DNA of 64,000 nt, taken from NCBI RefSeq assembly GCF_017348835.2, contig NZ_CP071375.1; one strand, written 5' to 3'. Position numbers: made by a program. The stretch is from Escherichia coli (GTDB taxonomy: Bacteria > Pseudomonadota > Gammaproteobacteria > Enterobacterales > Enterobacteriaceae). Positions 19,501 through 22,500 of this stretch are shown one piece after another. Numbering within the stretch: the first letter of the stretch is position 1; the number at the start of each line of letters is the position of its first letter.

Positions 19501-22500
19501 TTACGGTGTATTACCTCCGCTTTGTAAAGACCATTGATGCTCTCAGCCATCGCGTTGTCATACGAGTCGCCAGTACTCCCTGTTGATGCCAGTAATCCGG
19601 CTTCCTTAAGCCGCTGCGTGTAGGCCAGCGATACATACTGAGAACCTTTATCACTGTGATGGATTGTGCCGGACGGCCGACGGGCCCACAACGCCTGCTC
19701 CAGTGCATCCAGCACGAATGTTGTTTCCATGGATGATGAGACCTGCCATCCCACGATGTATCCGGCGAACACATCAATGATGAACGCCACATAAACGAAG
19801 CCCTGCCATGTGCTTACCCAGGTAAAATCAGCCACCCACAACTGGTCTGGACGTTCTGCCACGAACTGACGGTTTACGCGGTCGCATGCGGCAACGGCTT
19901 TCCGGCTGACGGTAGTGCGGACCTTTTTACCCCGGAGAACACCGGCAAGTCCCATAACTGCCATGAGACGTGCCACAGTGCATCTGGCCACTCTGATACC
20001 TTCCCGTAACAACTGACGCCAGACTTTACGCACACCGTATACCTGGTGATTTTCATCGTATACGCGCTGTATCTCTTTCTTCAGCCAGTCATCGTGCTGC
20101 GCACGGGCACTGCGTTTATCCGGATGATGTCGCTGTTGCTGACAATGGTAATACGTTGACGGGGCAATATGCAGTTCGCTGCATACCGGTCCGACCCCGT
20201 ACTGCTCACGCAGCTTATCCAGCAGTGGCATCATTTTTTCCAGAGGCGGTCGAACTCCGCCTTCGCAAAATAAGCGGAAGCCTGGCGAAGGATATCGTTA
20301 CTGCGGCGCAGTTCACGATTTTCACGTTCCAGCTCTTTCAGACGCTGACGTTCAGCGGTGGTGAGTCCACCATCACCACTCCCGGTATCCCGCTCATGCT
20401 GGCGAACCCAGACACGCAGAGTCTCCGGCGTACAGCCAATCTTTGGGGCAATGGAACAAATTGCCGCCCACTGTGAGTCATATTCATCCTGACTTTCCAG
20501 AACCATACGAATCGCCCGCTGACGGACTTCGGGGGAAAAACGAGTATTTTTAGTCATCCTGTTTACCTCTTTCTCAGGGAGTTTAGTCTCCAGGATTTCC
20601 GGGGCGGTTCACTTCGAAGTATTCTTCGTAAGCCTTTTCCATGATTGTGTCGAAATCCATATCACTCACCTGAGTTTCTTTCCAGCCAGCGACGGGCACC
20701 ATTTTCGGTTTTAAACGTTTTGCTTTTGGTATACGTCATCGCGGTGAATGTACCGTCCTGGTTGGGAAACACGCCGTACACCAGAGATTCGTTGTTGCCA
20801 AGATCGATAGTATCCATGTTGACCTCATTTCCCCTTAACGCCGGGTAGCGGAACAAAAACCTGCTGCATAGTTATTAAAGTTGAACCCTGCCGTCATGTT
20901 CATACGCCTCGGGCTGGCTACTTACCCCCTGACCACTGCTTGGTAACTCGAAGTATTGCCCGGCGTTCTGTGGGGCGGGGTGGGTGGTTGGTGTATGTAA
21001 TCTACAATTAAAAACTGTTTTGTGTCAACAGTTTTTAATTGTTGTTTTGGGCAAAAAAATCCCTCGAAAGAGGGAGTATGAAAATTGTTCAACTCAGATA
21101 GAGAAGGGAAATTGTCGCCGAGAATGTGTCACGCTTACAATCTCAATGCTTGAAGCAGCTACTCTGTACAGGATTATGTAGTTAGGGTGGGTCACGATCT
21201 CTCTCAATCCAGAAACCCGTTCGCTTGGTGGATATAAGTACGGATGCTCAGATAGAGGTAATACCGATGTTTCAATGCGTATTTTTAGTCTACGTGCTGC
21301 CGGTGGGTTCTCCTTGGCGATGTAAGTTATGATCTGGCGCAAATCATCGCGAGCAGACGGTAGCCATAAAATGGGTAACATTACTCGCTCTTGTTAGTTA
21401 CAGCAATTTGAGCAATAAGATTTTCCATTTCAGCCATTACCTCGTCATGTGGAATTGCGGGGCGAGTGTCTGCAAGGCTTGACGTTACTTTAGTGCGCAA
21501 CCATTCGTTGTAACTGTTTTCTTGTTCGGTAGTTTCGAATTCTGAAACTATCGGAGAAAGGGCTGTACCCATGGCATAACTCCTCTTCTTGTACTGTGGT
21601 CACGCCCGGCGGCTTTTTTGTGCCGCCAGCCACCTAGCAATGGTTTCTTCCATTGATTTTTTCTTGTCTTTGATTTCTTGAAGCATTTTTTCTTGGTCTT
21701 CCTCAGGAAACGCACTAAAAGCTTGGAGCAGTTCGCGTTGGCGAGGACCAATTTTCATCGTGTCAGGGGTGAAAATTGGCTCACACTCTTCAGGAGGCAA
21801 TAAAAACCAATGCAATGGATGCCCTGAAACCTCAACCAGTTTATCCAAACTTGAGGCTTTAGGTGTAGCCTTACCGCTGACCCATTGTTGAACAGTTTGT
21901 TGTGTCACACCAATTCTACGGGCAAGCTCAGCCTGGCTCCATCCAGTTTCCTGAAGAAGCTTGCTGATTCTGTACATAGATACTTCTAGGGCGCTCATCA
22001 TTATTCAATTTTACAGGTAAATACTGTTAAAAGCATCACAATAAAAAACTGTTGATTGCATACAGTTTTTTATTGTAGTCTTTGCTTATAGTTTTTAGAG
22101 GAGGGCAAAATGCTAGATAGCACTCGCGAAAAAATTAGGCAGAAATACACTCAGGCTGAAATAGGTCGTTATATGGGGGTCGCTCAACAGACTGTTTGGC
22201 AATGGTTTAGCTTTGGCGTTCCCCCAAAGCAGGTAATTCCGTTATGCCAACTAATGAAGTGGGAAGTTACCCCGCATGAAATCCGCCCAGATATTTATCC
22301 TAACCCAACCGACGGTTTACCTGTTGGATGTAAGGTTAACACATCAAATGCGCCGGAGTTGATTCATGAAAATCAAGCATGAACACATCCGCATGGCGAT
22401 GAATGCCTGGGCGCATCCGGACGGCGAAAAAGTACCGGCTGCGAAAATTACCAAAGCGTATTTCGAGCTGGGAATGACGTTCCCGGAACTGTATGACGAC

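Follow-up and report, generated by a model that had tools for sequence, protein, structure and literature searches.

The gene at positions 21600..22001 (minus strand, 133 codons) of the 64,000-nucleotide stretch of Escherichia coli DNA analysed here (the window) very probably encodes the CI equivalent of a defective lambdoid prophage of the Sp4/CP-933M type, which has a Qin-like left arm and lies beside yccA. As judged from its sequence, this immunity repressor is most likely unable to cleave itself on RecA filaments after DNA damage. Since the repressor has no S24 domain and the prophage carries no antirepressor of a known type, derepression would have to come from the Cro-like protein YdaS or from a foreign antirepressor, and the switch most likely flips by Cro-type bistability or by the antirepressor of another prophage. 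That the repressor lacks a peptidase domain is correct and was already known, having been published in 2009 for prophage Sp4 of Sakai (Asadulghani 2009, PMC2669165); publications of 2011 and 2023 had covered the family and its antirepressor mechanism, and one of 2021 the switch of the paralogous PaaR2. The modest additions made here are the anatomy of this allele (OR/OL palindromes, PL, a probably leaderless start and the immunity-cassette break-points) and a syntenic antirepressor slot that was found to be empty, which bears on whether, and by whom, defective EHEC-type prophages can be switched on.

Domain structure of the repressor

The sequence-only reading had described a short repressor of 133 aa with an N-terminal HTH, without an S24 domain or an Ala-Gly cleavage site, for which RecA-mediated autocleavage was not expected. 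The open reading frame was confirmed, on the minus strand, which that reading had left unstated. It is a real gene rather than a chance product, because the locus is widespread in E. coli (the 2-kb locus was present at a coverage of at least 80% in 484 of 5426 complete genomes) and homologues occur in other genera. Full-length homologues of 131-135 aa were found in Salmonella, Klebsiella, Raoultella, Pluralibacter, and Morganella, and this length and the C-terminal sequence were kept in at least six genera.

The repressor begins with an XRE HTH, which a disordered linker joins to a two-helix domain at the C-terminus. The Pfam scan placed HTH_3 at residues 13-58 (E 2.3e-12), along with other XRE/Cro-C1 HTH models. 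Peptidase_S24 (PF00717) was not matched by the full repressor, and the C-terminal 67 residues, scanned alone, had no S24 match at E<=10. As the positive control, the 229-aa CI of a Stx2 phage, the HTH of which shares 45% identity with residues 2-67 of the repressor, matched Peptidase_S24 with an E value of 3.5e-17 in the identical Pfam tool. PF27520 is present in the precomputed domains of some repressor homologues, and it was not among the listed matches of the repressor's Pfam scans. Furthermore, neither the Ala-Gly nor the Cys-Gly dipeptide occurs in the whole 133-aa translation.

The AlphaFold2 model of the repressor was all helical (mean pLDDT 82.8, zero strands), with helices from residue 4 to 73, the final ones being short, and at residues 86-96 and 100-132. 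The linker at residues 73-82 was modelled as disordered, and the C-terminal helical domain was predicted confidently (pLDDT about 90). Since the S24 fold is all-beta and the model is strandless, the two are incompatible. In the Foldseek search against PDB, the model resembled chiefly the HTH domains of XRE proteins, and the top 50 matches included no S24 peptidase domain. A cryptic S24 domain, which was one of the outcomes that could have overturned the sequence-only reading, was thus ruled out by the Pfam scans with their control, the all-helical model and the Foldseek search. Because the S24 domain is absent, no RecA-stimulated self-cleavage would be expected of this protein, as that reading had held. 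The repressor differs in this respect from lambda CI, LexA, and Stx2-phage CI, as it is without S24, the Ala-Gly site, and beta structure; nevertheless, it has the same role and the same position in the immunity region as the CI proteins of lambda and the Stx2 phage.

Immunity region, operators and the repressor operon

The layout of the locus is lambda-like, including the OL-OR architecture and the cargo genes downstream of the repressor. The gene order is int-xis-exo-dicB-DicF...parE-paaA-repressor, followed by ydaS-ydaT-O-dnaC across the point of divergence between the repressor gene and ydaS. The latter gene (22110..22382, plus strand) encodes a Cro-like regulator of the YdaS family with 90 aa (Pfam YdaS_toxin, E 8e-10; phrog_35). 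It is followed by the CII equivalent YdaT (22366..22791, plus strand; 141 aa), which is 86% identical to YdaT of CP-933P. The ydaS/ydaT junction harbours the sole copy in the window of the motif TTGATT-N6-AATCAA (22359..22376, plus strand), which is the published YdaT operator motif (PMC9986795).

In the left operon, a DUF1391 (ydfA-like) gene (20662..20817, minus strand) comes first after PL, an arrangement also seen in Qin. An IS3-family insertion (19306..20611), which is not at the corresponding site in Sakai Sp4, separates this PL-proximal gene from the ydfB-dicF-dicB section. The DicF sRNA was located at 18058..18109 on the minus strand (Rfam RF00039, 77 bits); therefore, the left arm is Qin-like. 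The prophage is defective, as it carries IS insertions and its terminase is frameshifted in the closest genome.

Two palindromes bracket the repressor operon. The OR-like one spans 22038..22076 (core 22045-22069) and has 15-nt perfectly complementary arms with a 9-nt spacer, and the OL-like one spans 21004..21046 (core 21011-21035). Their shared core, the perfect 25-bp palindrome AAAACTGT-N9-ACAGTTTT, occurs in exactly two copies in the 64 kb, versus 0.46 expected. By their repeat structure and position, the palindromes are most likely operators. The OL palindrome overlaps a PL-like leftward promoter, TTGACA-18-TAGATT (21028 down to 20999, minus strand), and the OR palindrome overlaps TTGATT-18-TAGTCT (22052-22081, plus strand), which by analogy with PL is the probable rightward PR. 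PR and the -35 element of PRM fit weakly and were missed by the promoter scan. A PRM-like -10 hexamer, TAAAAT (22008..22013, minus strand), lies 6 nt upstream of the repressor ATG, in front of which there is no Shine-Dalgarno sequence. This arrangement implies that the repressor mRNA is probably leaderless. The same -10-to-ATG geometry was found in the Salmonella homologues, and in paaR2 it likewise suggests a leaderless start, for which paaR2 is the precedent (PMC8630535).

We propose that the XRE HTH of the repressor most likely binds both palindromes, namely OR, which separates the repressor gene from the cro-like gene, and OL about 1 kb away over PL. Binding would silence two operons, ydaS-ydaT-replication to the right and ydfA-dicF-dicB-exo to the left. 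The C-terminal two-helix domain has homologous counterparts in DicA, Gifsy GtgR, and PaaR2. It most likely drives oligomerisation, as PaaR2 is an octamer; such oligomerisation could support the cooperation of OL and OR. The weak PRM-like promoter would yield the probable leaderless mRNA of the repressor, co-transcribed with paaA-parE.

The sequence-only reading had overlooked that the repressor gene heads a repressor-antitoxin-toxin operon. The three genes lie on one strand with a single terminator. The PaaA-type antitoxin gene (21381..21572, minus strand; 63 aa) was recognized by Pfam PF21217 (E 5.6e-19); its product matched PDB 3zbe (PaaA2) with an E value of 1.4e-20 and is 62% identical to PaaA2. 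Its GAGGAG Shine-Dalgarno sequence lies inside the 27-bp gap 3' of the repressor stop codon. The ParE toxin gene (21094..21381, minus strand; 95 aa; Pfam ParE_toxin, E 2.9e-17) overlaps the antitoxin stop codon with its start codon by one base, and its product matched PDB 5cw7 (ParE2) with an E value of 3e-36 and 67% identity. A terminator-like hairpin with a T-run (21050..21075, minus strand), right after parE, ends the operon. PADLOC assigned no defence system to PaaA or ParE. The operon is paralogous to the characterised paaR2-paaA2-parE2 module, and its paaA-parE pair fills the rexA-rexB slot and would serve as addiction cargo.

Relatives and mosaic origin of the immunity cassette

The closest counterpart is ECs_1069 of prophage Sp4 in E. 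coli O157:H7 Sakai, annotated as 'phage repressor protein', to which the repressor is identical in 132 of 133 residues. The one substitution, Q75P, falls in the disordered linker. Sp4 (CP-933M type) occupies the same integration site beside yccA, and ECs_1069 is flanked by ECs_1068 (PaaA-like), ECs_1067 (ParE-like), ECs_1070, and ECs_1071. The window's prophage differs from Sp4 in its IS3-family insertion and two further IS elements near hokD.

The class to which the repressor belongs was already known, which the sequence-only reading had not noticed. It is one of the short all-helical repressors of the DicA / RacR / Gifsy GfoR-GtgR / PaaR family. Its length is within the range of this family (about 130-160 aa), it has the N-terminal XRE HTH and full-length similarity to members, and its gene takes the place of cI and is transcribed away from a cro-like gene. 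DicA of Qin is 29% identical to the repressor across nearly the full length (E 3e-13), and both carry a C-terminal ELLxxFxxLPE motif. The NCBIfam model 'transcriptional repressor DicA' matched residues 11-130 (E 9e-15), its 54.6 bits being below the 101-bit cut-off. Qin has the same left operon, with ydfA, ydfB, DicF, and dicB; however, it has rem, which is absent from the window's prophage, and no TA pair lies downstream of its dicA. Gifsy GtgR is 31% identical to the repressor over 107 residues (E 5e-15), and GfoR and GtgR are likewise short, non-cleavable repressors with an HTH and a helical tail, in a family that has been described (Lemire 2011, PMC3121763).

PaaR2 of CP-933P is also without a peptidase motif (Jurenas 2021, PMC8630535), and the sequence search of PDB found no PaaR2 structure. 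Its operon has the same order and the same place in the ydaS-ydaT immunity region. The C-terminal 47 residues of PaaR2 are 64% identical to those of the repressor, whereas the N-termini are unrelated. At the DNA level, homology to CP-933P covers 20828-21665 (69.5%), spanning parE, paaA, and the repressor 3' end, is lost in the stretch from the DNA-binding domain through the operators to cro, and is back at ydaT (22355) with 87.6%. The CP-933P operators are GTTTAGTAA repeats, whereas those of the window's prophage are AAAACTGT-N9-ACAGTTTT, and the Cro-like partner in CP-933P is only 19% identical to the YdaS-like protein of the window. Since operators and Cro-like partners differ, the repressor and PaaR2 are heteroimmune alleles. 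In all likelihood, the repressor corresponds to the 'PaaR1' paralogue of Hallez 2010, a name assigned here by inference. An improbable further reading is that the swap of the DNA-binding domain, with the C-terminus and the TA pair kept, marks the C-terminal helices as a conserved target of antirepressors or of oligomerisation. In the Salmonella homologues, which are 80% identical to the repressor, the immunity layout is the same and an unrelated 112-aa gene replaces the TA pair.

Routes of derepression

The sequence-only reading had noted no obvious antirepressor gene in the window and had proposed that the remainder of the prophage be searched for one under LexA control. Homologues of Rem, GftA, DinI, and IrsA were detected by tblastn neither in the window nor in the whole Sakai Sp4 prophage, which bears out its observation. 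A LexA-box weight matrix, which recovered the sulA box and the Gifsy-2 dinI box (the latter scoring 24.4), revealed no credible LexA box in the prophage; outside coding sequence, none exceeded the shuffle level. Both the dinI-antirepressor-irsA operon and the LexA box of Gifsy, where the antirepressors GfoA and GftA are under LexA control (Lemire 2011, PMC3121763), are thus missing here. Moreover, the antirepressor slot is vacant. Next to hokD, where Qin carries a 422-bp rem cassette, only 56 bp stand here (31009..31064), between hokD and a conserved 92-aa ORF.

Three candidates were rejected in the course of this search. The CTGT-N8-ACAG sequence before hokD (30731-30746), at the junction of an IS481-family element and the hok leader, scored 10.0 as a LexA box, which is the level of shuffled sequence. 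The LexA-like 20-mer at 35125-35144 (17.0) lies inside an AraC-like ORF and has GTG instead of CTG in its left half; it was taken as a chance match. The 92-aa ORF (31082-31360) was considered as a positional analogue of Rem and gave no BLASTP alignment; it belongs to PHROG family 1212, versus 340 for Rem and 4847 for GftA. Since this ORF has a 79%-identical copy in K-12 Qin, which holds rem as well, it is a neighbour of rem and no substitute for it.

An antirepressor is one route among others. The repressors of Gifsy and DicA of the cryptic prophage Qin are inactivated by antirepressors (PMC3121763, PMC10448788), that of DicA being Rem (PMC10448788), and the documented route for PaaR2 is a Cro-like bistable switch, uncorrelated with SOS (Jurenas 2021, PMC8630535). 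Derepression in the window's prophage, if it still occurs, would follow this CP-933P precedent through YdaS-driven bistable switching, or would be brought about by an antirepressor from another prophage. A narrower proposal is that the prophage has retained a working repressor, its operators and the Cro/CII switch, has lost its own antirepressor, as the empty rem slot suggests, and relies for derepression on the antirepressors of co-resident Qin- or Gifsy-like prophages. We consider this proposal unlikely. If it were true, dicF-dicB and the TA pair would depend on other prophages for their expression, and E. coli would have a cross-prophage induction hierarchy such as that shown in Salmonella (Lemire 2011, PMC3121763). 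One published result counts against our preferred explanation. Circular Sp4 DNA was detected after mitomycin C only (Asadulghani 2009, PMC2669165), so that some SOS-linked response does exist in the Sp4-type prophage; the amplification of Sp4 was ascribed in the same study to regional replication from the adjacent Sp5.

Since the repressor gene is co-oriented with paaA-parE, 27 bp upstream of it, with a terminator only after parE, and the first account of PaaR2 presented it as regulating its TA module (PMC4803016), the repressor might be a dedicated regulator ('split antitoxin') of a three-component TA module with no role in phage immunity. However, the OL/PL operator copy lies outside the operon, before the ydfA-dicF-dicB arm, and Cro- and CII-like genes diverge from the repressor gene. 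The Salmonella homologues keep the immunity layout without the TA pair, and the closest full-length relatives are DicA and the Gifsy repressors. The two roles can, moreover, coexist, and a role confined to the TA module appears quite improbable. The repressor might instead be inactivated by a dedicated protease, as in the ImmR/ImmA, CapH/CapP, and DdrO/IrrE pairs, or by Lon/Clp of the host; this is in keeping with a weak PADLOC match to CapH (residues 11-115, E 5.8e-4), with Foldseek matches that include the CapH N-terminal domain and DdrO, and with the linker at 73-82, which could be a cleavage site. Nevertheless, it is the generic XRE domain that underlies the CapH/DdrO fold matches, and the annotations of the identical PE164 locus and of Sakai Sp4 contain no metallopeptidase of the kind found in those pairs, which makes this route very unlikely.

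It is hardly credible that the repressor is a decayed, truncated remnant of a lambda-CI-type protein that lost S24 in a defective prophage. The IS insertions, the terminase frameshift in the closest genome and the HTH shared with S24-bearing Stx2-phage CIs would agree with such decay, and the Sp4 repressor was scored 'D' in a table of Asadulghani 2009 (PMC2669165). However, the length and the C-terminal sequence are conserved in at least six genera, the C-terminal part is a helical domain predicted with confidence and homologous to those of the functional repressors DicA, GtgR, and PaaR2, and the DNA past the repressor stop codon encodes PaaA with its own Shine-Dalgarno sequence, not S24 remnants.

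Repressor protein and its family

The 133-codon ORF was present at 21600..22001 on the minus strand, and a Pfam scan assigned residues 13-58 of its product to an XRE/Cro-C1 helix-turn-helix (HTH_3, E 2.3e-12). Peptidase_S24 had no Pfam match in the whole repressor, and was absent even at E<=10 when the isolated C-terminal 67 residues were scanned. A 229-aa CI of an Stx2a phage, used as the positive control, returned Peptidase_S24 at E 3.5e-17 in the same scan; its first 66 residues shared 45% identity with repressor residues 2-67. Neither an Ala-Gly nor a Cys-Gly dipeptide occurred anywhere in the repressor translation. 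The AlphaFold2 model, computed from an alignment of 35 sequences, was all helical with a mean pLDDT of 82.8. Helices between residues 4 and 73, of which the final ones are short, are joined by a disordered linker (73-82) to two more (86-96 and 100-132). Foldseek matches in the PDB were mainly XRE HTH domains, including those of 434 repressor, SinR, C.BclI, the CapH N-terminal domain, and DdrO, and no S24 peptidase domain was found among the top 50. The sequence-only reading of a short HTH repressor without S24 was thus borne out by Pfam, the model, Foldseek, and the control CI, as was the missing Ala-Gly cleavage site by the translation. The repressor is predicted to be unable to respond to RecA directly, and the argument that a repressor without S24 needs a route to induction other than RecA-mediated autocleavage is sound.

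The repressor represents a conserved, intact class of protein rather than a truncated CI. Homologues of 131-135 aa with 58-80% identity were found in Salmonella, Klebsiella, Raoultella, Pluralibacter, and Morganella. Over nearly the full length, the repressor was 29% identical to DicA of the K-12 cryptic prophage Qin (E 3e-13) and 31% identical to GtgR of Gifsy-2 (E 5e-15). The NCBIfam model 'transcriptional repressor DicA' matched residues 11-130 (E 9e-15), below its curated cut-off. The multiple alignment revealed that the family shares ELLxxFxxLPExxQ as a C-terminal motif, with a long helix after it. PF27520 appeared in the precomputed Pfam annotation of eight Klebsiella and Raoultella homologues (P0027, P0030-P0036) and was not among the matches listed in the Pfam scans of the repressor; possibly, this family is a new C-terminal-domain model.

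The repressor was identical at 132/133 positions to ECs_1069, the 'phage repressor protein' of prophage Sp4 in O157:H7 Sakai. The single difference was at codon 75 (21777-21779), in the predicted disordered linker, which encodes Pro in the window and Gln in Sakai. The closest genome, pig isolate PE164, matched the window exactly across the 2 kb that were compared and hence has the same residue 75. The gene yccA adjoins the integration site of both Sp4 and the window prophage, and the 2-kb locus was detected at >=80% coverage in 484/5426 complete E. coli genomes. That the Sp4 repressor lacks a peptidase domain was published by Asadulghani 2009 (PMC2669165). The short repressor without S24 is therefore an ordinary finding, already in print for its family and for a protein with only one residue changed; what is added here, at annotation level, is a description of the operators and promoter geometry, of where the mosaic breaks, and of the vacant antirepressor slot.

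Immunity region, operators, and mosaicism

Two genes follow the repressor on its strand, encoding a 63-aa PaaA2-family antitoxin (21381..21572; PF21217, E 5.6e-19; PaaA2, PDB 3zbe, E 1.4e-20) and a 95-aa ParE toxin (21094..21381; ParE2, PDB 5cw7, E 3e-36). The antitoxin has a GAGGAG Shine-Dalgarno within the 27 bp that separate it from the repressor gene, its stop codon and the toxin start overlap, and a hairpin with a T-run lies directly after parE. Divergent from the repressor are genes for a 90-aa YdaS-family Cro-like protein (22110..22382) and the 141-aa YdaT (22366..22791), and then the replication genes. In lambda, rexA-rexB fill the slot held here by the toxin-antitoxin pair. The same three-component layout within a lambdoid immunity region is seen in paaR2-paaA2-parE2 of CP-933P, for which the module was described (Jurenas 2021, PMC8630535). 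The published YdaT operator, TTGATT-N6-AATCAA (PMC9986795), occurred once in the window, at the ydaS/ydaT junction (22359-22376). An 'ECs1072 family' ORF with neither a Pfam nor a PHROG match lies antisense at 22998-23453 (-), between ydaT and the replication-initiator gene. An 80%-identical Salmonella homologue had the same ydaS-ydaT immunity layout, but an unrelated 112-aa gene replaced the toxin-antitoxin pair. Therefore, the repressor is a phage immunity protein and the pair is cargo.

The 108-bp intergenic region contained a palindrome (22038-22076) whose 15-nt arms are perfectly complementary, and a second, closely similar one was found at 21004-21046, immediately past the parE terminator. 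Their core, AAAACTGT-N9-ACAGTTTT, had exactly two copies in the 64-kb window (22045-22069 and 21011-21035), against an expectation of 0.46 copies at <=3 mismatches. The left copy overlaps a leftward consensus-like promoter, TTGACA-18-TAGATT, which faces a Qin-like operon of a DUF1391/ydfA-like gene, ydfB, DicF (18058-18109; Rfam, 77 bits), dicB, and an exonuclease gene. We infer from the same geometry that the right copy overlaps a putative promoter facing the cro-like gene, TTGATT-18-TAGTCT, which the promoter scan left uncalled. Towards the repressor, 6 nt separate the end of a TAAAAT hexamer from an ATG that no Shine-Dalgarno precedes, and the Salmonella homologues had equal spacing with different bases. 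This fits a leaderless repressor mRNA, as was experimentally shown for paaR2 and lambda cI (PMC8630535). PaaR2 was reported to octamerise and to act on a PL-like promoter that has OL operators; by analogy, the OL-OR pair of the window may mediate a PaaR2-like octamer control of PL.

PaaR2, whose published N-terminus is MQKKE (Jurenas 2021, PMC8630535), was retrieved from IMG/VR contigs via a primer in that paper's supplement. The repressor resembled it in the C-terminal part only (42% identity over residues 37-133; 64% in the last 47). DNA homology to the CP-933P-type locus covered parE, paaA, and the repressor gene 3' end (20828-21665, 69.5%), was lost from the DNA-binding domain through the intergenic operators to the cro-like gene, and restarted at ydaT (22355 onward, 87.6%). 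Therefore, judged from this break, the window carries an allele predicted to be heteroimmune to the CP-933P type. The allele is most likely 'PaaR1'.

LexA boxes and the antirepressor slot

LexA boxes were scored with a weight matrix of 21 E. coli sites. The top score in the window, 22.7, fell on the host sulA SOS box TACTGTATGGATGTACAGTA (2740-2759), an internal positive control, and the dinI box of Gifsy-2, which has been defined by experiment, scored 24.4. The best prophage site, AAGTGGATGTTTATCCAGTA (35125-35144), scored 17.0, just above the best shuffle; it lies inside an AraC-family ORF upstream of three phage tRNA genes, and its left half has GTG, not CTG. The second-best scored 10.0, inside the shuffled-sequence range. 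The one other exact CTGT-N8-ACAG, at 30731, was rejected as a LexA box, as it sits at an IS481-family insertion junction in the hok leader. In Sakai Sp4, ACCTGTATAAATAACCGGTA was observed about 380 bp past the window right end (34194-34213 of the Sakai sequence L047; Sakai 1209193), flanked by the tail-fibre gene and by a pseudogene of the effector tccP2; it shares 19/20 positions with the E. coli dinI LexA box.

No homologue of GftA, Rem, DinI, or IrsA was detected by tblastn in the window, nor in the complete Sakai Sp4, which runs past the window end to attR at serT. Among the prophage genes that are small or unassigned, PHROG and Pfam scans yielded no antirepressor family. The gene order is hokD, rem, a 92-aa ORF, and ydfU in Qin, and dinI, gftA, irsA, and then a homologue of the 92-aa ORF in Gifsy-2. 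The window retains hokD, the 92-aa ORF (31082-31360, +; phrog_1212, no Pfam match), and a ydfU-like gene, and 56 bp (31009-31064) replace the 422-bp rem cassette of Qin. The expected antirepressor slot is thus empty, and the earlier claim that the window holds no antirepressor agrees with the tblastn, the PHROG/Pfam scans, and this slot; the part of Sakai Sp4 past the window end was likewise negative by tblastn. Of the 92-aa ORF, which is conserved, K-12 Qin has a 79%-identical, unannotated copy between rem and ydfU (Qin locus L044, 4310-4585), and Gifsy-2 has a 36%-identical homologue after irsA; it was always immediately downstream of an antirepressor module.

Derepression and prophage state

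Most likely, the repressor serves as the CI equivalent in a defective prophage of the Sp4 type. It would shut PR and PL via the two palindromes and would be co-expressed with the addiction toxin-antitoxin pair. Since no antirepressor of a known type is encoded in cis, the remaining routes are bistable switching, a trans-acting antirepressor, and proteolysis. Switching might be driven by Cro (YdaS), as documented for CP-933P, where it was uncorrelated with SOS (PMC8630535). An antirepressor of another prophage could act in trans, with precedents in PMC3121763 and in Rem/DicA (PMC10448788), and proteolysis may be a third route. Sp4 circles were seen only after mitomycin C, and their amplification was ascribed to the neighbouring Sp5 (Asadulghani 2009, PMC2669165).

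The prophage is degraded, with IS elements and a terminase that is frameshifted in the closest genome. An IS3-family element at 19306-20611 (ALIL frameshift pseudoknot, 20160-20276), missing at the corresponding Sakai Sp4 site, lies between PL and dicF-dicB, with the DUF1391/ydfA-like gene on one side and ydfB-DicF-dicB on the other, and has probably cut dicF-dicB off from the PL-like promoter. Furthermore, a 2.7-kb block at approximately 28033-30744, compared with about 300 bp in Sakai Sp4, contains another IS3-family copy (pseudoknot 28368-28484) together with an IS481-family element, the latter of which divides hok/sok (sok RNA 29489-29655; hokD ORF from 30759). Downstream of the Q antiterminator region, the three tRNA genes borne by the phage occupy 35490-35736, and STnc100 sRNA was matched at 35816-36006 (138 bits).
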